Counted from the first letter of the stretch, positions 9,890 through 48,192 are shown. The stretch: 64,000 bases of DNA from a virus (IMGVR_UViG_3300034101_003424:28767-92766), one strand, 5' to 3'. Notes: generated by a model from the letters alone, not told the origin. Translations and numbers: made by a program.

Positions 9890-10528
9890 ATGAATGCACA
9901 AGTTTATCCCATATTTCCAACACCTCTATATGTTGCAAATTATGATAAAGATTTAAAAGATGTAATAGATTATTTTGACAGTTCAGAAATGCAAGATACT
10001 AAAGCAGGGTATGGAATGATATCTACTAATAGTTACATTTTAGATAATCCTATATGCAATGAATTAAATACATTTCTTATGTCATGTTTTGAAGATTTTG
10101 CAACAAACATTATGAGATATAGATTTAAAGAATTAGGATTTGCACAATCATGGTTAACGTATAAGAATCCCAACCAAATTCATAAAGCACATACTCATCC
10201 AAATACAATATTGGCGGGAGTATTCTACTATGACGCACATGAGGATGATGCTGCTATATGTTTTTCAAAAGATGTTAAATCATTTAATAGGTCATACTTT
10301 GAACCATCTTTACATGACGATTATCAAAATCATGTATTTTCACAAGAAGAGATTTACTACATGCCAAAGAAAAATGATTTCCTCATATTTCCATCATGGT
10401 TGACACATGGAGTACCTCCGAATAGAACAAACCGAGTGAGAAAAGCATTAGGAGTAAACGCATTAACGAAAGGAACATTAGGAGATAAAGAAACCATATC
10501 TGAAATAATTTTTGGAAGATACTCATGA
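9890..10528 (+). CDS. Putative 2OG-Fe(II) oxygenase (TIGR02466-like)
   Basis: HTH, AGVFY, FPSWLTHGV. Confidence 0.8.
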   Translation: MNAQVYPIFPTPLYVANYDKDLKDVIDYFDSSEMQDTKAGYGMISTNSYILDNPICNELNTFLMSCFEDFATNIMRYRFKELGFAQSWLTYKNPNQIHKAHTHPNTILAGVFYYDAHEDDAAICFSKDVKSFNRSYFEPSLHDDYQNHVFSQEEIYYMPKKNDFLIFPSWLTHGVPPNRTNRVRKALGVNALTKGTLGDKETISEIIFGRYS

Positions 10529-11343
10529 AACAAAAGATATTTTTTAATTCCACATTACCTAGAAGTGGAAGTACATTATTACAAAATATAATGGGACAAA
10601 ATCCTGAATTCTTTGTAACACCGACATCAGGTCTAATTGATTTGATGCTAGGAGCAAGAATAGGATACAATCAAAACTATGAATCTAAGGCAGGTGATAC
10701 AGAAATGTGGAGAGAAGGATTCTATAAATTTTGCGGGGAAGGAATAAAAGCATATATAGCATCACAGACATCAAAACAATATTACTTAGATAAGAATAGA
10801 GTCTGGGCATTCTACTATAACCTATTATCAAACATGGTAGAAAAACCAAAAGTATTATACATGGTTAGAGATTTACCATCCATATTTGCATCCATGGAAA
10901 AGAAGTTTAGAATGAATCCTGACAAAGATGATGGTACTATGGATAATGTAAAGATGAAAGGAACTACAACACATAAGAGAGTTGAATTATGGGCTCAATC
11001 ACATCCTGTAGGTTATTCATTAGAAAAATTGTATCAGACTTTGTTGGATGGTACAGCTTCCAACTTTTTATTTATTAGATATGAAGATTTGTGTAGTAAT
11101 CCTGATAATGTAATGAAAAGCATCTATCAATATTTAGAGTTAGATGAATTTAAACATGATTTCCAACATATAAGTCAAGTCACCACCGAAAATGATGCAA
11201 TACATGGAATATATGGAGACCATGTGATAAGACCATATTTACAAATGTTGCCAAATGATTCAAAAGAGATATTAGGATTACATACCGTAGATTTGATTAA
11301 AGAGAATTATAAATGGTATTATGATTTCTTTGGGTATAAATAA
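10525..11343 (+). CDS. Sulfotransferase
   Basis: PAPS-binding LPRSGSTLL; VRD and RYEDL motifs. Confidence 0.85.
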   Translation: MKQKIFFNSTLPRSGSTLLQNIMGQNPEFFVTPTSGLIDLMLGARIGYNQNYESKAGDTEMWREGFYKFCGEGIKAYIASQTSKQYYLDKNRVWAFYYNLLSNMVEKPKVLYMVRDLPSIFASMEKKFRMNPDKDDGTMDNVKMKGTTTHKRVELWAQSHPVGYSLEKLYQTLLDGTASNFLFIRYEDLCSNPDNVMKSIYQYLELDEFKHDFQHISQVTTENDAIHGIYGDHVIRPYLQMLPNDSKEILGLHTVDLIKENYKWYYDFFGYK

Positions 11344-11374
11344 AGTTGGGAGAGGATATTTATAATAAAATAAT

Positions 11375-12325
11375 ATGGCAAAATTACAGAGTACAGAGAT
11401 AGTAGGTGTTGCAAATAGACCTGCAACAATATGTTCAAATACAATGTGCATTTGGTTTGACACAACTAATTTAAAAACGGTTATTTCGTATGTTCTTGGT
11501 ACATCTTGGTCAGCAGGTGGTGCAATGATAACTGCAAGACTAAGTTTAGCAGGTGCAGGGTCACAAAACGAAGGACTTGCATTTGCGGGTTATGGAGGAA
11601 CTAATTGCACAGAAGAATACAATGGTACATCTTGGTCAGTAGGTGGTACTTTGGCAATAGGAAGATACCCTTTGGGTAGTGCAGGTACACAGAATGCAGG
11701 ACTTGCTTTTGGTGGGAATCCATTTGGTATGTGTACAGAAGAATATAATGGCACAAGTTGGGCAGCAGGTGGTGCTTTAATAAGAAGTAGGCAATTATTA
11801 GCAGGAGCAGGAACGCAAAATGTAGGACTTGGATTCGGAGGTTACCCCGATACTGCTTCAGTGTGTACAGAAGAATACAATGGCACATCTTGGGCAGCAG
11901 GTGGTGCACTTATAACAGGTAGAAATTCATTAGCAGGGGCAGGAACACAAAATGAAGGACTTGCTATAGGAGGGTACGCAGTAGGTTTTATTAGAGTATC
12001 TTGTACAGAAGAATACAACGGCACATCTTGGTCAGCAGGAGGTGCTTTAATAACTGCAAGAAAATCATTAGCAGGAGCAGGAACACAAAATGTAGGACTT
12101 GCCTTTGGGGGAACTACAGCTTCCCTTGTATCATGCACAGAAGAATACAATGGCACATCTTGGTCAGCAGGAGTTCCGTTAATAACAGCAAGAGATAGAT
12201 TAGCAGGAGCAGGAACACAGAATGAAGGACTTGCTATGGGTGGAGTAAACGGCCCTTCGATAGTTTCATGTACAGAAGAATATAATAAACCATTAACATC
12301 AGTAGTAGTAGATTCAATACAATAA
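11375..12325 (+). CDS. Six-bladed Kelch-like beta-propeller protein
   Basis: Six ~47-aa repeats WSAGGALITAR..LAGAGTQN.GL..GG...CTEEYNG. Confidence 0.8.
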   Translation: MAKLQSTEIVGVANRPATICSNTMCIWFDTTNLKTVISYVLGTSWSAGGAMITARLSLAGAGSQNEGLAFAGYGGTNCTEEYNGTSWSVGGTLAIGRYPLGSAGTQNAGLAFGGNPFGMCTEEYNGTSWAAGGALIRSRQLLAGAGTQNVGLGFGGYPDTASVCTEEYNGTSWAAGGALITGRNSLAGAGTQNEGLAIGGYAVGFIRVSCTEEYNGTSWSAGGALITARKSLAGAGTQNVGLAFGGTTASLVSCTEEYNGTSWSAGVPLITARDRLAGAGTQNEGLAMGGVNGPSIVSCTEEYNKPLTSVVVDSIQ

Positions 12326-12326
12326 T

Positions 12327-13289
12327 ATGGCAAAATTACAAAGCACAGAGATAGTAGGTGTTGCAAATAGACCTGCAACAATATGTTCCAATAGTGTTTG
12401 TATTTGGTTTGATACGACTAATACTAAAATAGTTTATTCATATTGTGGGTATAGTGGTGCAGGTGTCTGGTCAGCAGGGGGTGCTTTGATAACGGCACGA
12501 AGATATTTAGCAGGTGCAGGGTCACAAAACGAAGGACTTGCAGCAGGAGGTTTTACAACTGTAGTGGTATCATGTACAGAAGAATACAATGGTACATCTT
12601 GGTCAGCAGGGGGTGCATTGATAGTAGCTAACTATGCACATGAAAGTGTTGGTACACAAAATATAGGTCTTGTAATTGGTGGTTATAACGGAAGTATTAA
12701 TTTAGCTTGTACCGAAGAATACAATGGCACATCTTGGTCAGTAGGGGGTGCGTTGATAACTGCAAGAAGGGCATCTGCAAGTGGAGGTGTACAAAATGAA
12801 GCCTTTGCCGCAGGAGGTCTTACAAGTGTTGGTGTATCTAATACAGAGGAATATAATGGGACATCTTGGTCAGCAGGAGGAGCATTGATAACAGCAAGAT
12901 ATGTTTTAGCAGGAGCAGGAACGCAAAATGTAGGATTAGCTATGGGAGGTTTTACAAATGTGAATGTATCTTGTACGGAGGAATATAATGGTACATCTTG
13001 GTCAGCGGGAGGTGCAGTAATAGTAGCAAGGTCAAATTTAGCAGGAGCAGGTACGCAGAATGAAGCATTAGTTATGGCAGGTGAAATACCCGCAGCATCA
13101 AGTTGTACAGAAGAATATAATGGTACAAGTTGGTCAGTAGGTGGTGTTTTAATAACGGTAAGGACACATATACCTGCAAGTGGAGGTTCTCAGGGAGCTG
13201 CATTTTTAGCAGGTGGATGGACAGGAGCTGTTACATCTTGCACCGAAGAATACAATAAACCATTAGCAATAATAGACTGTATTAAATAG
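12327..13289 (+). CDS. Six-bladed Kelch-like beta-propeller protein (paralog)
   Basis: Same N-terminus and six repeats. Confidence 0.8.
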   Translation: MAKLQSTEIVGVANRPATICSNSVCIWFDTTNTKIVYSYCGYSGAGVWSAGGALITARRYLAGAGSQNEGLAAGGFTTVVVSCTEEYNGTSWSAGGALIVANYAHESVGTQNIGLVIGGYNGSINLACTEEYNGTSWSVGGALITARRASASGGVQNEAFAAGGLTSVGVSNTEEYNGTSWSAGGALITARYVLAGAGTQNVGLAMGGFTNVNVSCTEEYNGTSWSAGGAVIVARSNLAGAGTQNEALVMAGEIPAASSCTEEYNGTSWSVGGVLITVRTHIPASGGSQGAAFLAGGWTGAVTSCTEEYNKPLAIIDCIK

Positions 13290-13299
13290 AATATACAAT

Positions 13300-14250
13300 A
13301 TGGCAAAATTACAGAGTAGTGAAGTTGTTGGAGTTGCAAATAGACCTGCAACAATATGTGTAAATACTGTTTGTTTATGGTTTGATACAACTACTCAAAA
13401 ACCAATGGCATCTTATTGTGCAAGGAGTGGTGCAGGAGCTTGGTCAGCAGGAGGTGCGCTGATAACAGCAAGATTTTATTTAGCAGGAGCAGGAACACAA
13501 AATGCAGGACTTGTGGTTGGAGGGTATACAAATGCAAGTGTAGCAAATACAGAAGAATATAATGGTACGTCTTGGTCAGCAGGTGGTGCAATTATAACAG
13601 GTAGATATGATTTAGCAGGAGCAGGAACACAAAATGAAGGACTTGCTATAGGAGGTTATACAAATGTATCTTTGTCTTGTACAGAAGAGTATAATGGAAC
13701 ATCGTGGACAACAGGAGGTGCTTTAATAACAGCAAGATGGGGATTAAGAGGTGCAGGTGAGCAGAATTCAGGACTTGTAACAGGCGGTTTTACGAATGTA
13801 ACTGTTTCATGTACCGAAGAATATAATGGCACATCTTGGTCAACAGGAGGTGTAATGATAGTAGGCAGACGCCCATCAATGTCAGCAGGATTTCAGAATG
13901 TAGGACTTGCAGCAGGAGGTTTTACGAATGTAAATGTTTCATGTACCGAAGAATATAATGGCACATCTTGGTCAACAGGAGGTGTAATGATAATTGCACG
14001 ATGTTATTCATCAGGAGCAGGAACACAAAATGAAGCCTTTGTTGCAGGAGGTTATACAAATGTATGTGTGTCTTGTACAGAAGAGTATAATGGAACATCG
14101 TGGACAACAGGAGGTGCTTTAATAACAGCAAGGCATACTTTAGCAGGAGCAGGTACACAAGGGGCAGGACTTGTAATGGGAGGTTATATAATTTCTTGCA
14201 CAGAAGAATACCTAAAATCATCATACACAATAGTAAATTGTATCTTATAA
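13300..14250 (+). CDS. Six-bladed Kelch-like beta-propeller protein (paralog)
   Basis: Same N-terminus and six repeats. Confidence 0.8.
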   Translation: MAKLQSSEVVGVANRPATICVNTVCLWFDTTTQKPMASYCARSGAGAWSAGGALITARFYLAGAGTQNAGLVVGGYTNASVANTEEYNGTSWSAGGAIITGRYDLAGAGTQNEGLAIGGYTNVSLSCTEEYNGTSWTTGGALITARWGLRGAGEQNSGLVTGGFTNVTVSCTEEYNGTSWSTGGVMIVGRRPSMSAGFQNVGLAAGGFTNVNVSCTEEYNGTSWSTGGVMIIARCYSSGAGTQNEAFVAGGYTNVCVSCTEEYNGTSWTTGGALITARHTLAGAGTQGAGLVMGGYIISCTEEYLKSSYTIVNCIL

Positions 14251-14278
14251 TTTACATATAACAAAAAATAGTTTTAAT

Positions 14279-15154
14279 ATGAATAAATACGTTATTTGGC
14301 ACATTCAAGGAGGTTTAGGAAAAAATGTGGCAGCAACAGGATTACCAAAGACAATAAAAGAAGTATATAGTGACAGACAACTTATAATGGTTGTGTCATA
14401 TCCCGAAGTTTTCCTAAACAATCCTTATGTTGATAGGGTATATCCGTTAGGTAATTGCCCCTACTTTTACGAGGATTTTATAGAGAATAAGGATACCCTT
14501 GTTTTTAGGCATGAACCTTACAATCAAACAGGACATATTTTAAAGCATAAGCATTTAATTAATAATTGGTGTGACTTACTTGGAATAGAATACAGCAATC
14601 AAACCCCTCAATTATACCCCAACTACTCAGAGAAGATAAATGCGAAGAAATGGTTTAGAGATAAGCCTGTCGTAGTATTACAAACATCAGGTGGAGAGTT
14701 AGAATCAAAAAATGTATATTCATGGTGTAGAGATATGCCACAAGATATAGCACAGTTAATTGTAGATAAATATAAAGATTCATTTCATATATTTCATGTA
14801 TCAAGGCAAGGAGGATATGTTTTAAATAATGTAGAAAGAATTGATACTAAATTATCTAACATGGAATTATTTAGCATGTTAACTGTATCATCTAAGAGAT
14901 TTTTAATTGATTCATCTTTGCAACATGCAGCGGTAGCCATTAATTTACCATCTGTTGTATTTTGGATTGGGACATCTCCGCAAGTTTTTGGTTACGATAT
15001 GCATACGAATATTGTGGCGAAGCAGATTAATAATAAGAATCATTTAATTGGCTCTTACCTATTTGACTTTCAGTTTGATTACAATGTGCATGAATGTCCG
15101 TACAGTACCTTAGAGGAAATGTTTGATATAAATGATGTAATAAATAAGATATAA
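14279..15154 (+). CDS. Glycosyltransferase, GT-B fold (GT9-like)
   Basis: GGLGK N-terminal motif, NNPYVD, IDSSLQHAA. Confidence 0.65.
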   Translation: MNKYVIWHIQGGLGKNVAATGLPKTIKEVYSDRQLIMVVSYPEVFLNNPYVDRVYPLGNCPYFYEDFIENKDTLVFRHEPYNQTGHILKHKHLINNWCDLLGIEYSNQTPQLYPNYSEKINAKKWFRDKPVVVLQTSGGELESKNVYSWCRDMPQDIAQLIVDKYKDSFHIFHVSRQGGYVLNNVERIDTKLSNMELFSMLTVSSKRFLIDSSLQHAAVAINLPSVVFWIGTSPQVFGYDMHTNIVAKQINNKNHLIGSYLFDFQFDYNVHECPYSTLEEMFDINDVINKI

Positions 15155-16072
15155 ATGAAATTTTGCATAGCTACATTGACTCATAGATATGAAGATAGAG
15201 ATGTTTATTTAAGAAAGACTATAGAAAGTTTTATAGATAATACAGAATTTGACGGCATGTTTGATTGGTACATTCATTGTAATGGTCAATATGATTTAAT
15301 GGATGTTGTCATTAAAGAGATGGCTAGTAAATATTGGGATAAGATTAACTTTTACTATTCCTCATCTCCTGATAACATGGGAGTAGGTGTTGGTATTAAT
15401 TATTTGAATTCATTGGTTAGAGATTATGAGTATGTTTTATTTTTAGAAGGAGATTGGATTTGTTTGCCCGGCGAAATTTCTGGTCATAATGATTGGTTAA
15501 GAGATTGCCTTAATTACTTAGACGAAAACAAAAACATCAGTCAAGTGTTACTAAGGAGATACATTAGTGATTTGGATGATAGGCAGTATGGATATGGGTA
15601 TTGGATACGAGAAGATAATATAAAAAGTGTGGGGAAGTTAAAAAATACATATCTCCATTTACATAAGAAAGAATATACCAACAATCCATACATAAGAAGA
15701 AACAATGACTTTTATGATAAGAACATATTACCATTAAATGAATTCTATGATGAAAATGGATTACCTAATGAAATTAAAGGTTTATCCATGTGGGGACAAG
15801 CTGAGATACAAGCAGAGTCAAAAGGATATGAAATAGAATCATGTTATCTAGCATTTGGGAACATGGTACATTGTGAAGCATGGCATTATTATAAAGAGTA
15901 TGATAAATTAATTGAGGAAGATATGACATGTAAAAAGTATTTAGATGTTGGTAAAGCAGGATGTAAATATGGATACTTCTTCCCCGCAAAAAAGTTCTGT
16001 GAAGTATGTGACCATTCTAAAAACTTCACGGATTTAGAAAGACACGAACAGGAATACGAAAGTAAATTATAA
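15155..16072 (+). CDS. Glycosyltransferase family 2-like protein
   Basis: GT-A pattern: N.G...GIN, YVLFLEGDW. Confidence 0.6.
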   Translation: MKFCIATLTHRYEDRDVYLRKTIESFIDNTEFDGMFDWYIHCNGQYDLMDVVIKEMASKYWDKINFYYSSSPDNMGVGVGINYLNSLVRDYEYVLFLEGDWICLPGEISGHNDWLRDCLNYLDENKNISQVLLRRYISDLDDRQYGYGYWIREDNIKSVGKLKNTYLHLHKKEYTNNPYIRRNNDFYDKNILPLNEFYDENGLPNEIKGLSMWGQAEIQAESKGYEIESCYLAFGNMVHCEAWHYYKEYDKLIEEDMTCKKYLDVGKAGCKYGYFFPAKKFCEVCDHSKNFTDLERHEQEYESKL

Positions 16073-16076
16073 GGAT

Positions 16077-17006
16077 ATGACACATAAAAGTAATTTTGAG
16101 AATGTTTTTTGGCATATAGACAGTATGAGATTAATTAGCAACGACTTATATGAAGTAAGCGGTTGGATTTTTAGTACAGAAGGAAGTGTTAAAAAAGTAA
16201 TTATTGGAGACGTAGAATATGCGAATCTCCAAAATGGATTGTACCCTAGAAAAGATGTCAAAGAGGTATATCCTGATTTACCTAATGATCTGGTGGGTTG
16301 GACTTTCATGGTTAAACCCTCTAATGTAAATGCTCCTATAGATATTATTTTGGATAACGAAGTGCAGGTTTCAAATATCGGCACCTTAGATTCCTGGCAT
16401 GTCTTTAATTCCGGTTTTAATCCTCACGCTTCTAAAGATATTGTTGTTGTAGATAATTTTTACATGCAACCAGACTTAGTGAGAGACTATGCTATTCATA
16501 ATCTAAAATATTCCGAATCTGATTACCACAGAGGCAGAAGAAGTGATACCTCTTTTATACTAAATGGAACACTAGAAAGATTTGAGGAGATATTAGGGAG
16601 ACCTATCTATAATTGGAACCATCCGGAATATGCCAATGGGAGATTTCAATATTGTACTTCGACAGATCCTATTGTATATCATGTAGATTCTCAAAAGTAT
16701 GCCGCCATGGTTTACTTAACGCCGGATGCACCTTTACAGAGTGGAACCGCAACATACAAAAGCATTCACACAAAAAAGACAAAGTTTGATGAAGCTAGTG
16801 GTAAAGATTACGAGAAAGCATTTAAGGGAAGAAGTAGCGAATTAAATTTTTATGATAAGACATCTTTTGAACTAGTTGATAATATAGCTAACGTATATAA
16901 TAGATTAGTTTTGTTTGATGCTAAAAATATTCATGCTGCTGTAAACTACTTCGGTGACACTAAAGAAAATAGTAGATTTTTCCATTTATTCTTTTTTGAT
17001 ATATGA
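16077..17006 (+). CDS. DUF6445-like / 2OG-Fe(II) oxygenase-like protein
   Basis: VVVDNFY..PD.VR, HVD, YLTP, NRLVLF, HAA. Confidence 0.65.
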   Translation: MTHKSNFENVFWHIDSMRLISNDLYEVSGWIFSTEGSVKKVIIGDVEYANLQNGLYPRKDVKEVYPDLPNDLVGWTFMVKPSNVNAPIDIILDNEVQVSNIGTLDSWHVFNSGFNPHASKDIVVVDNFYMQPDLVRDYAIHNLKYSESDYHRGRRSDTSFILNGTLERFEEILGRPIYNWNHPEYANGRFQYCTSTDPIVYHVDSQKYAAMVYLTPDAPLQSGTATYKSIHTKKTKFDEASGKDYEKAFKGRSSELNFYDKTSFELVDNIANVYNRLVLFDAKNIHAAVNYFGDTKENSRFFHLFFFDI

Positions 17007-41476: not shown

Positions 41477-41866
41477 TTAATCAGCTACGTTCTTTTTTGC
41501 ATTTGCTAAGGGATCAAATCTTGTCTGGATACCTACAAAGTATTTACCCGCAGGAACTACGGTGTGCCTATGATCTTTCTTTAATGTTATCATAGCTTTA
41601 TCTAATGTAACTCCCAAACCTTTTAGCTCCGACTGTAAAGAGTGATTTAATATGCACTCTTCATGAGCATCGATAACAAGTCCTCCATCTTCAAATTCGT
41701 AAATGTCGTAGTTACCAAATAAAGCATGAAAACTACCAGACCTTTCAGATGCAGCTATAAATCTTTTCTCTATCTTTTTAATACCCTTAGGTAAATCCGA
41801 CAGTGTGAAGAATTGAACATCGCCTTGATGAAAGCCTTCGTTCTTAAATTTTAATTTGCTTTTCAT
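41477..41866 (-). CDS. Conserved partner of DUF6745-like proteins (QGDV family)
   Basis: HQGDV...E.SG..H...H...H...PAG.Y....Q..FDP......VAD pattern. Confidence 0.65.
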   Translation of the reverse strand: MKSKLKFKNEGFHQGDVQFFTLSDLPKGIKKIEKRFIAASERSGSFHALFGNYDIYEFEDGGLVIDAHEECILNHSLQSELKGLGVTLDKAMITLKKDHRHTVVPAGKYFVGIQTRFDPLANAKKNVAD

Positions 41867-41885
41867 AATAATAATAGTTTTAAAT

Positions 41886-42842
41886 TTAGTTTGCAGATTG
41901 CCAAGTATAATCTATGTCACCTGGTACATTATCAGGTCTATGCCATTTAGCACATTTTACAGCATCTTTAAATGTAGGACAAGTGTCAATTAAATATACT
42001 GATTTTGTGCTAGGACAAGTAAACTCAATCCATGCGTAAGGTTGATCCAACTCACCTTTGCTATTTTGTAAGAATGAGTATGTTTTATTTGTTTTATACA
42101 ATCTTATTATTTCCTCATACCCGTTCTTATGTACCACGGTTTGCTCATCTACAATAGATGCATCTAACATTTCCAGGACACCCTCATTTCCGTAATTTTC
42201 TTTAATTATGGTAATGATAGCAGCTTTAATATCTTCGTTATCTTGATTATGAAAAGCAATCTTAGCATTAATTAACGAGCTGCATTCTTCGAATAACTCT
42301 TTTTCCAAGAATCTACCATTAACATAGTGCTGCCCATATCCATCAGCAAATTCAATGGCAAATCCTGTAGTACAATGTAAGTCATTATTTTCGTTCCTAG
42401 ATATTTTTTTAGGATACTTAGACACGAGGCAAACTTTGTCCATTTGTATTTGAAGATAGGAGTTTTCAACACATTCTAGGACTAAGTTAAAATCATCTTT
42501 GTATTCATCAAGAATATCAAAATTATCCATAAAGAAACTGTAGAAAGATAGCCATGAAATATCATCAACATTGATATAGGATGAGAACGGCTCATATACT
42601 AGGTTATCTTTATTCCCCATCAATTCATTCACTTTAACTTGACATTGCATAGGACTGTCTAGCAAAAGTACTTCCGGCTCTTCCAATCCGCAAAACTTGT
42701 ATAGCCTTTTCATTGAAATCTCGGTTCTGTCTTTATCATGGTTATTATAAAACTCATAATTAAAAACTTTACTCAACCACTTTTCTCTGTGGGAATCCAA
42801 CTTTGCCTCTTGCTCTGGGGTCAAACTTTCTATTTTCTTCAT
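41886..42842 (-). CDS. DUF6745-like protein lacking the internal QV/QL repeat segment
   Basis: IESLTPEQEA...REKW...LY...GL..P....DSP; WLSFY.FF; LH...G.AIEF.DG...HY.NG; CPST..VY. Confidence 0.65.
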   Translation of the reverse strand: MKKIESLTPEQEAKLDSHREKWLSKVFNYEFYNNHDKDRTEISMKRLYKFCGLEEPEVLLLDSPMQCQVKVNELMGNKDNLVYEPFSSYINVDDISWLSFYSFFMDNFDILDEYKDDFNLVLECVENSYLQIQMDKVCLVSKYPKKISRNENNDLHCTTGFAIEFADGYGQHYVNGRFLEKELFEECSSLINAKIAFHNQDNEDIKAAIITIIKENYGNEGVLEMLDASIVDEQTVVHKNGYEEIIRLYKTNKTYSFLQNSKGELDQPYAWIEFTCPSTKSVYLIDTCPTFKDAVKCAKWHRPDNVPGDIDYTWQSAN

Positions 42843-42944
42843 TATACAACAATTTTAAAAGGTAATAAACTAATTATGATGCAAATATAATAACATTCTT
42901 GGACTTTTCCTAATTTTATATGTCAAGTACATGTTAATATCTTG

Positions 42945-43202
42945 TTAATGTTTAGTATTTTGCGGGGAATACATATTTAATAATCTAAAATTGATTTTTT
43001 TTACTTGACCCATTACTGGACGCCATACTTTAAATCTTATTTGATCCGTTATTTGTCTACTCACTAGATTTTCAACTTTTTTTATTACTTGACTTGATAT
43101 TTCATCTTTTTCATGATTCTCTTTTTCATAATCCCACAGTCCATATACAGTATGATTCCATATCTTGTCCTGTACTAAATTACTTATATTCTCCATAATC
43201 AC
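42945..43202 (-). CDS. Array mini-gene 21
   Basis: ORF track; QV/W-rich helix. Confidence 0.65.
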   Translation of the reverse strand: MIMENISNLVQDKIWNHTVYGLWDYEKENHEKDEISSQVIKKVENLVSRQITDQIRFKVWRPVMGQVKKINFRLLNMYSPQNTKH

Positions 43203-43405
43203 ATGTTTAAATTTACTTTATTATCCAATGCAATCCATGCTTGAACTCTTACTCCATTAAATATTTGCCCTCCCAATAAATCTTCAACATTATTACCTAC
43301 TTTATCAGTTATTTTCTGCTCTACTTGATTAGATAGATGATTCCATAACATAACCCTCATCTTATAATTTACATGATTTGATACTTTACTTCTTATATTC
43401 TTCAT
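43199..43405 (-). CDS. Array mini-gene 20
   Basis: ORF track; ATGA overlap. Confidence 0.7.
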   Translation of the reverse strand: MKNIRSKVSNHVNYKMRVMLWNHLSNQVEQKITDKVGNNVEDLLGGQIFNGVRVQAWIALDNKVNLNM

Positions 43406-43632
43406 AACCTAATATTTTGTTTTACTTGTTTCATTATATTTAGTTTTACTTGACTAGGAGAAACTACAGTATCCTCTACTTTAATTCTGGCTTCGCCCTT
43501 TATCATACTCTCTTTGTTAGCATATAATTGATGCCACATCTGAAAAGATATATCACTACGTACTTGCCTATATTTTTTTCCCTTTGATTTACCTCGCAAC
43601 ATATTTGATAACATACTCACTATATTTTTCAT
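43402..43632 (-). CDS. Array mini-gene 19
   Basis: ORF track; ends QVKQNIRL. Confidence 0.7.
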   Translation of the reverse strand: MKNIVSMLSNMLRGKSKGKKYRQVRSDISFQMWHQLYANKESMIKGEARIKVEDTVVSPSQVKLNIMKQVKQNIRL

Positions 43633-43799
43633 AATCTAATATTTTGTTTCATGATTATTGTCTGCATACGTAATCGCTGATCAAGAGGGATATATACTTG
43701 TTTATTTGTTCCGAAATTCGTATGTAAGGATATACGCTTAGTCCATACCAAATAATTAGTAGATATACATTCCCTCATTTTATCTTTAATATTTTTCAT
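43629..43799 (-). CDS. Array mini-gene 18 (56 aa)
   Basis: Read manually: MKNIKDKMRECIS...IMKQNIRL*. Confidence 0.7.
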   Translation of the reverse strand: MKNIKDKMRECISTNYLVWTKRISLHTNFGTNKQVYIPLDQRLRMQTIIMKQNIRL

Positions 43800-43981
43800 A
43801 ACCTAATATTTTGTTTTACTCTATTTTCTGTTTGGGTAAATATTGGATCATTCACTTTATTATCTGCTATAATCCAAACTTTATTACTCACATGCCAATT
43901 AAATCCTTTTCTAAATTTTAACATTGTCTGGACTAATTTATCATTCATCTGGCCCGCCATAACATTTTTAAGATTATTCAT
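43796..43981 (-). CDS. Array mini-gene 17
   Basis: ORF track; ends VKQNIRL. Confidence 0.7.
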   Translation of the reverse strand: MNNLKNVMAGQMNDKLVQTMLKFRKGFNWHVSNKVWIIADNKVNDPIFTQTENRVKQNIRL

Positions 43982-44174
43982 GATTATTTTTTTTTAAACG
44001 AATAAGTATTTGCTTGTTTACTTGAGAACCTGCTTGATTCCATAATTTTCTCATTCTCACTGTGCCACTCACATTTTCTTCAACTTTGTCCCGGACGCGA
44101 ACTCTTATTAGTCCCCATAAGCCATCAACTTTATCACTTATGCGTTTCCATACTTCATTTTCAACATTCTTCAT
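43974..44174 (-). CDS. Array mini-gene 16
   Basis: Start moved to MKNVENEV. Confidence 0.7.
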   Translation of the reverse strand: MKNVENEVWKRISDKVDGLWGLIRVRVRDKVEENVSGTVRMRKLWNQAGSQVNKQILIRLKKNNHE

Positions 44175-44389
44175 ATTTCTAAAATTTGTCTTATGCGTTC
44201 CCATTCTTGATCTAGTACTTTAGCTTCTAATTCATCTCCTACTCCATTTCCAATTCGATCCCATATTTGCTTATCTCCCTTGTTCCATATTTTTTTTCTT
44301 AATTTAGTTACTACTTGTTCACTTAGTTGATTAATCAAAAGCGTCCTTACTTGATACATCTTTTCGTTGATTTGATTTTTAGTTTTCAT
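44171..44389 (-). CDS. Array mini-gene 15
   Basis: ORF track. Confidence 0.7.
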   Translation of the reverse strand: MKTKNQINEKMYQVRTLLINQLSEQVVTKLRKKIWNKGDKQIWDRIGNGVGDELEAKVLDQEWERIRQILEI

Positions 44390-44393
44390 AACT

Positions 44394-44585
44394 TCATGTT
44401 TTGTTTACTTGTTCATACAACCTATCCCGAACTTGTCTATATGCCCAACTACTTGTTCTGGAATTTGTTTTAGTCCTCACATCACTCCTCACTTTTCTGA
44501 AAACTAGATTTACCAATACAGCACCTGATGGATTCGATAGCCTATCTCTTATTCCACTCGCTATACTATTATTCACATTGTTCAT
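44394..44585 (-). CDS. Array mini-gene 14 (1-nt deletion in tail)
   Basis: Start MNNVNN; ends QVNKT instead of QVKQNMKL. Confidence 0.65.
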   Translation of the reverse strand: MNNVNNSIASGIRDRLSNPSGAVLVNLVFRKVRSDVRTKTNSRTSSWAYRQVRDRLYEQVNKT

Positions 44586-44758
44586 AATTTGATATTTTGT
44601 TTTACCGGCTGCCATACTATATAACGTGCTCTATTTTTTACTTGATTCCGGACTTCATTATGAACTTGCCTAGATGTTAATAGCCATAATTCATTAAGCA
44701 GTTGAGTACCTCCCTGCTGCCATATTTTAGCTTTAATTTTATCCTTTACATTCTTCAT
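44582..44758 (-). CDS. Array mini-gene 13 (58 aa)
   Basis: Read manually: MKNVKDKIKAKIW...WQPVKQNIKL*. Confidence 0.7.
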   Translation of the reverse strand: MKNVKDKIKAKIWQQGGTQLLNELWLLTSRQVHNEVRNQVKNRARYIVWQPVKQNIKL

Positions 44759-44931
44759 AACTTTATATTTCGTATTACTTGACTAACTAATCCCTCCTTA
44801 ATTTCAATATGCATAAAAACACTTATTTGATTCCACACTTTAAATCTTACTGGGCTACTAACTTTATTACTCATTGGAGACATTAATTGATTTCTTATTT
44901 GTTCACTTACTTCATTTTCAACATTCTTCAT
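44755..44931 (-). CDS. Array mini-gene 12
   Basis: Start moved to MKNVENEV. Confidence 0.7.
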   Translation of the reverse strand: MKNVENEVSEQIRNQLMSPMSNKVSSPVRFKVWNQISVFMHIEIKEGLVSQVIRNIKL

Positions 44932-45137
44932 AACTTTATTTTTTGTGCTACATGATACCATACCTGTCTCCTTACTTGATCCGCCAATTTATTAGTAGTT
45001 AATTCAACCATTTGATTAGTTACTTTACCGGATACTTTCATTTCTATTTTATGCTCTACCATATTTCGGGTGTGCACTCTTAAATTCATCCATAATTTAT
45101 CACATGAAGATGCTGTTTGTTTCTGTACCTTTTTCAT
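44928..45137 (-). CDS. Array mini-gene 11
   Basis: ORF track. Confidence 0.7.
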   Translation of the reverse strand: MKKVQKQTASSCDKLWMNLRVHTRNMVEHKIEMKVSGKVTNQMVELTTNKLADQVRRQVWYHVAQKIKL

Positions 45138-45322
45138 AACTTCTTATTTTGTTTTAATTGAGCCCATACTTGCAAACATACCTGATCTCTGGGTTTCACC
45201 CACACTTGACTGTCTATTCTAGCTTCTACCTGGTCATTTACTTGACTCTTTGTTAAAATCCGTAGTAGATTTCTTAATCCAATATTCATTTTATAAGTTA
45301 TAGTATCATTTACAGTCTTCAT
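45134..45322 (-). CDS. Array mini-gene 10
   Basis: ORF track. Confidence 0.7.
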   Translation of the reverse strand: MKTVNDTITYKMNIGLRNLLRILTKSQVNDQVEARIDSQVWVKPRDQVCLQVWAQLKQNKKL

Positions 45323-45513
45323 AACTTCATGTTTTCTTTTACGTGAAAAGCTATTTGATTTGTTATTTCAGTTGTTGCTTGATATCTTAATTGAATTAGA
45401 TCCTTGATTAAATACCATACCTGAGTATTAATTTTATTACCTAGTTTTATTCTTAATTCACTTCTCAATTCACCACTTATTTTTTGGTATACTTGTTTCT
45501 TTACATTTATCAT
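45319..45513 (-). CDS. Array mini-gene 9
   Basis: ORF track. Confidence 0.7.
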   Translation of the reverse strand: MINVKKQVYQKISGELRSELRIKLGNKINTQVWYLIKDLIQLRYQATTEITNQIAFHVKENMKL

Positions 45514-45710
45514 AACTTCTTATTTTGTTTTACTTGAATACATAGTTGATCTTTCATTTGATCACTTATCTGTTCAATTACCGGATTTCTTACTACATTC
45601 CATACTCGATCTATTACGGAACTACTTGATAAATCCCATACTTTATTTCTTCCCGGATTAAGTACTTTACCTCTTACTTGATCCCATACCTTTCTTCTTT
45701 CACTTCTCAT
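45510..45710 (-). CDS. Array mini-gene 8
   Basis: Start moved to MRSERRKVWDQV. Confidence 0.7.
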   Translation of the reverse strand: MRSERRKVWDQVRGKVLNPGRNKVWDLSSSSVIDRVWNVVRNPVIEQISDQMKDQLCIQVKQNKKL

Positions 45711-45904
45711 ACTTTTCTTATTGGCCATGATGCGTCTATGTTTTCCTGCACATCAATATATAATGAATCAAATATCTGTCCTCTTATTCTACTCCCTATT
45801 TTATCTTCTACCAAGTCCCTTACTTGATTACCTATAGTACTCCATACTGGACTTTTTACTATAATTCTTATTTCACTACTTACTTCATTTCGCACATTCT
45901 TCAT
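45707..45904 (-). CDS. Array mini-gene 7
   Basis: Start moved to MKNVRNEV. Confidence 0.7.
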   Translation of the reverse strand: MKNVRNEVSSEIRIIVKSPVWSTIGNQVRDLVEDKIGSRIRGQIFDSLYIDVQENIDASWPIRKV

Positions 45905-46065
45905 AACTTTATGTTTTCTTTTACTTGCTCCCACAATTGATTACTTACTTTATTACGTACTTGATTACGTACTTGATGATTTACTTCATGTCGTACGTTA
46001 TCCTCTACTCCATACCATACTTTATCACATACTTTATCACTTATTTTTTCACTTACATCCTTCAT
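45901..46065 (-). CDS. Array mini-gene 6 (54 aa)
   Basis: Start moved to MKDVSEKISDKV. Confidence 0.75.
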   Translation of the reverse strand: MKDVSEKISDKVCDKVWYGVEDNVRHEVNHQVRNQVRNKVSNQLWEQVKENIKL

Positions 46066-46226
46066 AACTTTATGTTTTCTTTTACTTGCTCCCATAATAG
46101 AATACGTACTTTATTTTTTACTTGACTCTGTACTTCCTTCGATACTTGGTTCCATACATCTTTCCATACTTTACTACTTATTTTACCACCTATTTTATCA
46201 CTTATTTTTTCACTTACATCCTTCAT
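46062..46226 (-). CDS. Array mini-gene 5 (54 aa)
   Basis: Read manually: MKDVSEKISDKIGG...LWEQVKENIKL*. Confidence 0.75.
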   Translation of the reverse strand: MKDVSEKISDKIGGKISSKVWKDVWNQVSKEVQSQVKNKVRILLWEQVKENIKL

Positions 46227-46387
46227 AACTTTACATTTTGTTTTACTTGAGCCGATTGTTGATTACATACTTGAATCCATACTTGATCGCTTATTTTCTT
46301 CCATACTTGATTCCACACTACATCATCTACTTGATGCAATACTTTACTTCCTATCTGCTGTCTTACTTTATTTCTCATATCCCTCAT
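46223..46387 (-). CDS. Array mini-gene 4 (54 aa)
   Basis: Read manually: MRDMRNKVRQQ...VWNQVWKKISDQVW...QVKQNVKL*. Confidence 0.75.
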   Translation of the reverse strand: MRDMRNKVRQQIGSKVLHQVDDVVWNQVWKKISDQVWIQVCNQQSAQVKQNVKL

Positions 46388-46646
46388 AACTTCACATTTT
46401 GTTTTATCTGTCCCTAAATTTGATTTGATAATTGGTCATGTTTATCCTCTCCAATTTGAATACATGCCTTACCTCATTACTTACTCTACCCTTTACTCTA
46501 TTACTTACTTGATTTCGTATTTGATTGCTTACTTGATCGCGTACTTGCTTACTTACTCGAGTCCATAATTTACTACTTGCTTTACTCCATGTTTGATTCA
46601 TAATATCTCTTACATGCTCTCTGACTTTGTTATCCACATTATTCAT
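46384..46646 (-). pseudogene. Array mini-gene 3 (frameshifted; current ORF 46404-46646)
   Basis: Canonical tail CIQI...DQLSNQI*GQIKQNVKL lies in another frame and contains a TAG. Confidence 0.55.
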
Positions 46647-46825
46647 AACTTCATATTTTGCTGTACCTGTTTAATTACTTGAAGTCCCAATTGATTCCAT
46701 GCTCGATTCCATACTTGAATACATACTTCATTACTTACTTCATCTTTATTTTTTATCTTCCCTCCTATTCCATTCCTTAGTCGCCTGGTTATTTTATCAT
46801 GTACTTCCTTATTTACATTCTTCAT
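46643..46825 (-). CDS. Array mini-gene 2
   Basis: ORF track; ends QVQQNMKL. Confidence 0.75.
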   Translation of the reverse strand: MKNVNKEVHDKITRRLRNGIGGKIKNKDEVSNEVCIQVWNRAWNQLGLQVIKQVQQNMKL

Positions 46826-47010
46826 AACTTTACATTTTGCTGTACCTGTTTAATTACTTGAATCCATAATTGATCACTTGTCTGCTCAATTATTGGATCT
46901 CTTACTTTAATCCACACTTTATCTCCGACTAGATTCCCTATTTTACCGTCTGCTTGACTCACCATTTTACTTGCTATCCTCTCTCTTACTGTATTTTCTA
47001 CATTCTCCAT
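46822..47010 (-). CDS. Array mini-gene 1
   Basis: ORF track; ends QVQQNVKL. Confidence 0.75.
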   Translation of the reverse strand: MENVENTVRERIASKMVSQADGKIGNLVGDKVWIKVRDPIIEQTSDQLWIQVIKQVQQNVKL

Positions 47011-47275
47011 AACTTTACATTTTGTTTTACCTGGTTTTCTGAATATTTCGCGGGGACACTACATAATACATAATCCCAGTAATACATCATTTAATCATAA
47101 TACAAACATACAACATTAAAATAACATATCCAAACATAATAACAATAACAATAAAAATAAAAACATTTACTCCATCATTTATACCATCATAAAATAAAAC
47201 ATCATTCATCATACATCTAACATCAATATACATTCCATCCTACTTTATTCCCTAATGTATTCCCTCATTTACTCC

Positions 47276-47323
47276 ATCATGTACGGTATCATGTATGGCA
47301 TCATGTCCGGTATCATGTACGGT
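47276..47323. repeat. Four tandem 12-bp repeats (ATCATGTACGGT consensus)
   Basis: atcatgtacggt atcatgtatggc atcatgtccggt atcatgtacggt. Confidence 0.85.
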
Positions 47324-48150
47324 AACATCTATTCCATAAAGACATCCATATATCATAACATCATCTATAAAATCATCTATAAAGCATATCAGTAACATAA
47401 AGAATATAAAATGTAATCCTAATCAACATGACTGTAACATGGAAAGATATGTGATAAATGAAAGAAAATGATATAAATAGAAAGGTCAAATCAATCACGT
47501 GTAGGAGTAGTACTGGAAATGACGTGCAAGTATCGGGAAAGGAGCAGCAAAAAATACGTTCTATGTAGTAAGTTAAATTGTAGTGCATCTGGGTTAATAT
47601 GTGGATAAGTGGGGGGTTGTCAGGCGAATTTTTTCATCGAATGCCTTTATTTCGCACACAGTTGGCTTCTAATGAACTTTGGGCGGAACCCTTCGTCTAG
47701 TTCCACCCACCATGAGAAGATGCAGCAGAATGAACGCTACATGCCTAAAAATGGATTCTATGATGTCTAATTGGAAAGCATGTTGAACACATATTTAAAT
47801 CCATAATATAAGAGGGTTGGAGTGATTATTAGGATGAAAGATATGATGTATACCTGTTTGTCCGTTAGTTTAGATACCCAATGTTCGTTATTTTCTTCCA
47901 TTTTGTTTGATTTTTCCATCATTTGTGCATTTTTTAGACATTTTGTTGTGCATTTTTGATGATTAGTGATAAAAAATAGCATTGATTGTCAACATTTTAT
48001 GATTTTTTTGATCTTTTTGTGACTAGAGAGATAGAATAAAATGCATCTTTCTCATCTAATTGACATGTTTAAAATTGAAATACCATTGACAATCAATCAT
48101 TTACATTTTTTGTTGATCTTTTTGTGGCCGGGGAGATAGAAACATAAAGA

Positions 48151-48178
48151 AAGGGGACTGGCTTTCGCCAGTCCCCTT
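48151..48178. terminator. Strong hairpin / terminator after the 48193 gene
   Basis: AAGGGGACTGGC-TTTC-GCCAGTCCCCTT. Confidence 0.7.
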
Positions 48179-48192
48179 CTCACATGCAACCA

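Follow-up and report, generated by a model that had tools for sequence, protein, structure and literature searches.

A putative split form of a phage DUF6745 module: an array of 21 tetrad-repeat mini-genes next to a tract-less scaffold gene

The stretch of DNA analyzed here (the window) comprises 64,000 nucleotides (nt), bases 28767-92766, of the virus contig IMGVR_UViG_3300034101_003424, a 92.8-kb IMG/VR record estimated by CheckV to be ~51% complete. On its minus strand, 21 mini-genes for degenerate xQVx tetrad-repeat proteins form a translationally coupled array (42945-47010), which is followed by the gene of a DUF6745-like protein without the internal repeat tract of its relatives (41886-42842) and by the gene of a His-rich QGD partner protein (41477-41866). 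We read this locus, with a probability of about 60%, as a phage DUF6745 module in its split form, with the small proteins (hereafter units) docking in trans on the tract-less protein (hereafter the scaffold). Most relatives encode a single protein consisting of an N-domain, a central tetrad tract with two fixed (e.g., Q-V) and two variable positions, and a C-domain. Within the clade of this phage, the scaffold gene lacks the tract, and tract-like sequence is instead found in 21 diverged basic proteins of ~60 amino acids (aa), encoded in a coupled array upstream.

The array was examined first for its composition. Between 47010 and 42945, 21 open reading frames (ORFs) follow each other back to back on the minus strand without space for extra units, and 15 of the 20 junctions are ATGA overlaps of 4 nt, the others being either gaps (2-16 nt) or longer overlaps (8-22 nt). 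This is the arrangement which a preceding interpretation of the window, made from its sequence only (the sequence-only reading), had described. With unit starts set at the MKNV-type ATG, the encoded proteins measure 54-83 aa, thus retaining the lower bound of the 54-85 aa given in that reading and lowering the upper one. Its description of conserved ends enclosing variable cores with a period of four residues agrees with our counts: 19 of the 21 units begin with M-x-x-[VILM] (most commonly MKNV), 14 end in ...N-x-[KR]-L (e.g., ...QVKQNIKL), and a simple period-4 score is positive for 19 of the 21 array ORFs versus 4 of the 226 remaining ORFs of the contig. Pairwise identity between units ranges from 19 to 59% (median 30%), with V or I being kept at every fourth residue of the cores. 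On DNA level, repeat finders recovered both the inner period of 12 nt (4 aa) and the conserved junction DNA as repeat families. All units are intact, ordinary open frames with a net charge of +1 to +11. Their codons are mixed, which characterizes them as old diverged copies rather than an active minisatellite. A profile built from the units matches all 21 of them at E-values of 1e-11 to 1e-22 (by construction) and detects none outside the array across the 92.8-kb contig. Searches of the units against Pfam and PHROGs returned nothing credible; the Atlas clusters nearest to a unit, to be taken as a lead only, are free-standing viral hypothetical proteins of 57-68 aa. Reading the array as one long gene translated via frameshifting was considered and rejected, since every unit restarts at an ATG of its own with a conserved N-end, and since array and scaffold are not contiguous.

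Starting at the end distal to the scaffold, the array contains unit 1 (46822-47010, 62 aa), unit 2 (46643-46825, 60 aa), unit 3 (46404-46646, 80 aa, with an atypical C-end), unit 4 (46223-46387, 54 aa), unit 5 (46062-46226, 54 aa), unit 6 (45901-46065, 54 aa from its MKDV start, an upstream ATG at 46095 being likewise open) and unit 7 (45707-45904, 65 aa, C-end atypical). These are followed by unit 8 (45510-45728, 72 aa), which is missing in the near-identical phages L001 and L002, and by units 9 (45319-45513, 64 aa), 10 (45134-45322, 62 aa), 11 (44928-45137, 69 aa), 12 (44755-44931, 58 aa), 13 (44582-44758, 58 aa) and 14 (44394-44585, 63 aa, C-end atypical). The scaffold-proximal part comprises unit 15 (44171-44389, 72 aa, both ends atypical), unit 16 (43974-44174, 66 aa), unit 17 (43796-43981, 61 aa), unit 18 (43629-43799, 56 aa, with a degenerate core), unit 19 (43402-43632, 76 aa, missing in L002), unit 20 (43199-43405, 68 aa) and unit 21 (42945-43196, 83 aa, with a long and atypical C-end). 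Upstream, unit 1 is abutted by the remnant of a lost unit's 3' end (47011-47040, minus strand; ..NQVKQNVKL, stop TGA changed to TGG), showing that the junction sequence precedes unit 1 as well.

The scaffold gene starts ~100 nt downstream of the array and encodes 318 aa, divided into an N-domain (residues ~1-75), a loop (76-91) and a C-domain (92-318). It reaches 27.6 bits against Pfam PF20530 (DUF6745; cut-off 27, E 2e-6, residues 134-234) and 28.1 bits in a six-frame search, a narrow margin for the window scaffold itself, while many of its homologues bear a precomputed PF20530 label; the match to phrog_31813 has an E-value of 6e-8. A near-length search yielded 59 homologues. Alignments conserve L7, T8, Y48, P56, P64, H156, G176, and C276-T279 and show one protein combining the N-domain (DSP motif) with the C-domain (CPST motif); Y48 belongs to the only three residues that are invariant, H156 is invariant, and C276 of the CPST motif is near-invariant. 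The loop is the site at which relatives carry the tetrad tract. Here, only 21 residues lie between the DSP and FSSY motifs, and the internal tract is absent. The sequence-only reading had put this segment at about 25 non-repetitive residues; it is indeed non-repetitive, albeit shorter. As the tract is common in the DUF6745 family but lies outside the Pfam model, its absence does not bear on membership in PF20530. The scaffold has a net charge of -20, and its AlphaFold2 (AF2) model is compact (predicted local distance difference test (pLDDT) 90.8, predicted template modeling score (pTM) 0.81).

Beginning 19 nt past the scaffold stop, the partner gene encodes the 129-aa HQGDV...VAD protein, so that a DUF6745-type gene and its QGDV partner stand directly downstream of the array, as had been proposed. 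The partner has 445 homologues, mostly 60-70% identical. It gave no direct match in the PHROG scan; its family nevertheless aligned with phrog_27831-type partners (hhalign probability 96%, E 4.8e-9; local hidden Markov model (HMM) E 9.5e-9), making it a divergent member of this type. The phrog_27831-type family accompanies distant DUF6745 genes on either side. The AF2 model of the partner is all-beta (pLDDT 84). Its invariant His, Asp, Glu, and Cys residues suggest a metal site, and distant partners have an HSETGH-type motif in common. Some distant DUF6745 proteins (P0047, P0058) end in R-(Q/H)-G-(D/E), resembling the N-end of the QGD partner, which hints at a fusion or a shared strand between both proteins. 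Foldseek comparison of scaffold and partner with the PDB gave no match at E<=0.001, and in a wide VIA-align search the best Z-scores were 4.4 and 3.2, respectively, values that assign no fold and do not imply novel ones. In the Atlas, the partner met only viral hypothetical clusters. Pfam, PHROG, and solved-fold searches yielded no enzyme class for either protein, and we found no literature naming DUF6745 or PF20530 or describing the split architecture.

The relation of the array to the scaffold becomes apparent from the relatives that have kept the tract inside the gene. Exactly between the DSP and FSxY motifs, scaffold homologues that are 50-61% identical possess a (D/N)QVx tetrad tract with a length of 36-232 aa or more, in line with the DQVxDQV or SQLxSQL repeats that the sequence-only reading had named for the region after the SP motif. 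Several of these fused homologues are 100-230 residues longer than the window scaffold, the excess consisting of (D/N)-Q-V-x tetrads. Over viral contigs, the tract types include QV, SQL, NTL, SNI, ANI, DSV, DNL, and SKL, and tract lengths extend from ~35 to ~1150 residues; the longest one seen, equivalent to 17 units, belongs to a 1425-aa DUF6745-like protein (L018:8198-12472). Codon use within the tracts of three fused genes is highly restricted, the variable fourth position being encoded solely by AGG, GGG, and TGG (and GAG) and the first solely by RAY or RRC, and the fused tract is consequently a 12-bp minisatellite. Two fused pairs illustrate its length variation, one having tracts of 136 and 36 aa with flanks identical at 317 of 318 positions, the other 232 and 192 aa with flanks identical at 318 of 318. 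About one-third of the contigs with a tract-bearing scaffold start or stop inside the tract, as expected for a variable or hard-to-assemble repeat, and a circular 49.6-kb contig is broken within it (L010 and L013). As a consequence, short-read surveys undercount and truncate the fused forms.

Profile comparison connects the units with this tract. Tract-bearing homologues received 78-181 bits from the unit HMM, and homologues lacking the tract received no score. After reversal or shuffling, targets mostly remained at <=15 bits; the signal hence depends on direction and register and not on mere composition. Searched against 1.84 billion representative proteins, the unit profile gave 1308 matches at E<=1e-3. 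Within the best 150 of these, 134 contain the scaffold C-domain, 122 both domains, and 117 a unit-like stretch between the N- and C-domains, which is where the sequence-only reading had expected a unit profile to match. Judged by profile and position, these results show the units to be homologous to the tract.

We extended the comparison to other phages by locus scans. The full diverse scaffold alignment offers no sufficiently conserved stretch for this purpose, and a closer set took its place. A second scan was limited to C-domain patterns, was hence blind to repeats, and contributed 43 loci, which were pooled with the earlier ones and deduplicated. All eight close scaffold relatives (74-99% identical) are tract-less, and all eight have 7-40 unit genes on the same strand, up- or downstream of the pair. 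Linkage of array and tract-less scaffold, for which the sequence-only reading had proposed to look in related phages, was accordingly found in these eight and in several unrelated clades. Counting as an array at least four period-4 mini-ORFs within 10 kb of the scaffold, none of 27 distinct tract-bearing scaffolds has one, compared with 16 of 23 tract-less ones (Fisher p 5e-8, uncorrected for relatedness). The remaining tract-less scaffolds mostly have two to three units adjoining the gene, e.g., that of L052, which is flanked by two ANV-type units. Arrays of 30-40 units occur in L003, L005, and L045. Repeat types of the arrays are clade-specific (QV, SEL, NSV, ANV; e.g., SEL in L053 and NSV in L067) and have conserved ends of their own. 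On the C-domain tree, tract clades are interspersed with clades in the array state, of which there are at least four separate ones. Taken together, the locus comparison shows that units replace the in-cis tract across phages.

The array itself is subject to selection as well as to turnover. Orthologous units of the window and the near-identical phages L001 and L002 align gap-free, with a pooled ratio of non-synonymous to synonymous substitution rates (dN/dS) of 0.42 versus L001 (39 synonymous and 75 non-synonymous changes) and 0.32 versus L002. These values lie well below the neutral expectation near 1, which the sequence-only reading had named as speaking against its interpretation. As the dN/dS of the scaffold is 0.04, selection on the units is purifying but relaxed; the partner has values of 0.05-0.15. 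One unit shows 10 non-synonymous versus one synonymous change. Between phages whose neighboring genes are 95-100% identical, whole units are present, absent, or reordered: relatives hold extra units, and the order of units 9 and 10 is reversed. In addition, a joint between 45318 and 45707, by which exactly two units are skipped, was seen in one metagenome contig, a weak observation given its short side and low depth. This comparison of closely related genomes shows that arrays gain, lose, and reorder whole units. L001 and L002 also carry two non-unit genes inserted at one unit boundary. The insertion sites (L001:8607-9252 and L002:6271-6955) match the window boundary 44755/44758; one of the inserted genes encodes a conserved 77-107-aa protein, while the other has a unit as its 3' half. 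Loose ends of metagenome contigs occur at this insertion boundary, too (44755, 44782). Overall, diversifying pressure clearly falls on the tract, whether encoded in cis or in trans.

A structural link between units and scaffold is suggested by complex prediction, which the sequence-only reading had called for. Unit 5, chosen for this purpose, docked on the scaffold with an interaction prediction score from aligned errors (ipSAE) of 0.75, 0.74, and 0.79, the best of three controls reaching 0.00. Of 80 solved complexes, 58 attained this ipSAE mark, as did 2 of 110 mismatched pairs; the calibration is a rough one, since own alignments were used. The runs share at least 35% of contacts, and the pLDDT of the partner chain is at least 76. 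Contacts of lowest error join unit residues 3-8, the conserved N-end, with scaffold residues 47-53 and 132-135, a region including the invariant Y48. Out of contact are unit residues 6, 10, 14 ... 38, which correspond to tetrad position 1, one of the two variable positions. The model thus supports binding of the unit to the scaffold. Furthermore, basic units on an acidic scaffold, as opposed to the neutral-to-acidic fused tracts, are what would be expected if affinity had replaced the covalent link. With regard to the externalised, diversified library acting in trans that had been proposed, with putative roles as adaptors, decoys or anti-defence factors, the detachment has been borne out by the sequence tests, whereas action in trans is predicted from this one model and its controls.

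On this basis, a mechanism can be outlined. The acidic scaffold would receive each unit in trans, with the conserved N-end and the fixed Q/V face of the unit settling into a predicted groove that separates the N-domain from the beginning of the C-domain and adjoins the tract loop. The variable residues would stay exposed, and one infection would give rise to ~21 variants of one complex. In the most speculative step, drawn by analogy with gp54 of the mycobacteriophage Tweety (see below), the variable surface may recognize variable host or host-defence proteins. By the same analogy, a phage with the fused form would hold one tract variant per genome, altered by slippage, while a phage with the split form would have a fixed library of variants, all available simultaneously. 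As a tentative extension, which we deem possible but would not favor at present, the DUF6745 protein and its His-rich partner may form an acidic core that can be loaded with any of 21-40 co-expressed basic helical adaptors for combinatorial display. The fixed Q/V face would dock and the variable face be displayed, as a counterpart of the single tract tuned by slippage. If so, the phage could meet many defence or target variants without waiting for mutation.

Several points weigh against the split-module reading. Four-residue repeats are of low complexity, and convergence could make part of the profile signal. Only four phylogenetically independent contrasts between tract and no tract are found on well-supported branches, a number with which a sign test cannot reach significance; in these four, array and tract never change in the same direction. 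The linkage is not tight everywhere: array and pair are 5 kb apart in L008 and 7 kb apart in L026, and arrays or single repeat proteins occur without a scaffold in the available flank (L016, L034, L027-L033). The cores or ends of units 18, 15, and 21 are degenerate, and these units may be in decay. The docking is one model of one unit, and the functional parallel to Tweety is an analogy only, because gp54 is not homologous. Separately, we noted that L027-L033, seven short viral contigs, encode the same free-standing 110-aa protein composed of three unit-like stretches.

Best surviving among the rival explanations, though in our estimate rather unlikely, is that the units derive from the tract but act alone, e.g., as small basic helical proteins for host takeover or anti-defence or as nucleic-acid binders, with the linkage merely marking their birthplace. 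The scaffold-free occurrences and distant arrays just mentioned favor this explanation, as do the strongly basic character of the units, which fused tracts do not share, and the free-standing viral proteins in the nearest Atlas clusters. It would, however, leave the complementarity of arrays and tracts (0 of 27 versus 16 of 23) unexplained unless the units took over the role of the tract. Moreover, the complex model passes its controls, and its best-defined contact is that of the conserved unit N-end with the region of the invariant Y48.

With still lower odds, units and tract may be substrates, and scaffold and His-rich partner a machine modifying the repeated Q/V motif in cis or on free peptides. 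Tandem small genes with conserved ends and variable cores adjoining two conserved proteins would suit such a system, and so would the invariant residues and the HSETGH-type motif of the partner family and the near-invariant C276 and invariant H156 of the scaffold. Neither protein, however, matches a known peptidase, exporter, or enzyme family of ribosomally synthesized and post-translationally modified peptide (RiPP) pathways. The conserved unit ends span just 4-8 residues, unlike leader peptides, and the variation of fused tracts looks slippage-driven, unlike a product-coding core.

That the array is decaying or selfish repeat DNA, for instance a giant tract gene broken by frameshifts and without present function, appears very improbable. 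Giant tracts do exist, as in the 1425-aa protein of L018, a few units are degenerate, and the dN/dS of the units is relaxed relative to the neighboring genes. On the other hand, none of the 21 frames is broken, ATGA coupling is regular, N-ends are conserved, dN/dS is well under 1, similar arrays with conserved ends of their own recur in at least four clades, and this very array persists in lake metagenomes from 2016 to 2024. Least credible of all is a silent cassette library from which units are recombined into the scaffold to rebuild a tract in the style of antigenic variation: conserved junction DNA and the shuffling of whole units between near-identical phages would fit, but the units all possess a start codon of their own and a coupled stop and evolve under purifying selection, the scaffold tract site scores 12 against the unit junctions compared with 11.1 +/- 1.5 for shuffled sequence, and no scaffold with an inserted unit was found in the eight close relatives or in contigs from four lake metagenomes.

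The genomic surroundings place the locus within a phage known from environmental DNA. In the window, the minus-strand half encodes RNA ligase, thymidylate synthase, and exonuclease and the plus-strand half several tail-fibre proteins, a gene content which fits a large phage with T4-like organization. Amid the tail-fibre genes, seven consecutive ORFs of 272-320 aa (10525-17006, plus strand) may represent a tandem paralogue family. A terminator-like hairpin with 13 pairs, 8 of them G-C, was detected by consensus scan only at 48150-48179 (minus strand), ~1.1 kb upstream of the array, and is probably where the transcription unit before the array ends; only short, odd ORFs separate the hairpin from unit 1. 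Just upstream of the array, there is a second small period-12 tract consisting of x-H-D-x tetrads (47246-47383, minus strand, in the 48-aa ORF 47252-47398). In two of four lake metagenome runs, it contains a 12-nt insertion at 47307, exactly one tetrad, so the length of this tract varies in the population. Of the sampled words of the array locus, at least 87% were present in each of 20 lake-water/freshwater metagenome runs from 2016-2024, and the public runs listed included none of RNA. The region had no blastn match among GenBank phages, and the single tblastn match of the scaffold in GenBank is an uncultured record, leaving the subfamily without a cultured phage member; among 185,579 species genomes, it appears on one contig of a metagenome-assembled genome.

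Phages are known to vary single proteins by means of retroelements or, as in Tweety gp54, by slippage of in-gene repeats. In the present case, a widespread phage protein has had its variable part moved out of the gene, repeatedly and in unrelated phages, and this part has been multiplied into 20-40 genes at a genome cost of 4-8 kb. If the units bind back, this would constitute a new viral route to many versions of one complex simultaneously and, in parallel, a natural collection of small helical binders sharing one dock. It also gives a first functional handle on DUF6745 and its partner, with the Tweety analogy leading to the hypothesis of a counter-defence tuned by the tract.

Among known systems, the fused DUF6745 proteins (PF20530; phrog_31813) stand closest to the locus, having the same N- and C-domains, the same phrog_27831-type partner, and the same tetrad register as the units. 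They differ in carrying the tract inside the protein as a near-perfect 12-bp minisatellite, whereas the window has 21 separate genes encoding basic, diverged proteins with mixed codons. In the RiPP field, split and fused as well as multi-precursor clusters occur, e.g., those of borosins and prochlorosins. These clusters resemble the window in having many tandem small genes with conserved ends and variable cores beside a conserved protein pair; the window differs by its phage early region, its very short conserved ends, and the absence of any detected RiPP enzyme family. Diversity-generating retroelements produce adenine-specific variation, while fused tracts vary A/G/T at one codon position, and no RVT_1 match for a reverse transcriptase was found in the 92.8-kb contig of the ~51% complete record. 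Variable region 2 of bbp36 from the Bordetella phage BMP-1 is an in-gene tandem repeat with a copy number differing between isolates, like the fused tract, but it has a 24-bp unit in an unrelated protein, and the passage of the source dealing with it describes no detached mini-genes (PMC2884959).

With respect to function, the closest analogue is Tweety gp54. In this protein, an AAxx tetrapeptide with a 12-bp coding unit occurs 48 times between unique N- and C-terminal regions, and copy numbers differ in its relatives; within the group of Tweety gp54, Che8 gp57, and PMC gp51, 15-48 tetrapeptide copies are found, with two positions fixed and two variable, the latter including G and W (PMC2884959). 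No homology between gp54 and the scaffold was detected (hhalign probability 0.1%), and the Tweety locus has no match to the scaffold or partner HMM; a detached form and a QGD partner are not known there, and the repeat is AAxx. Mutants of gp54 that escape the Phrann gp29/gp30 defence have an altered repeat number, described by the authors as a tunable counter-defence (PMC9262239), and gp54 thus has a tested function. The analogy is a close one for the fused DUF6745 proteins, which are alike in their 12-bp tetrapeptide tract and in copy-number variation with near-identical flanks. In the window, the equivalent of this copy-number variation would be the number and order of whole units.

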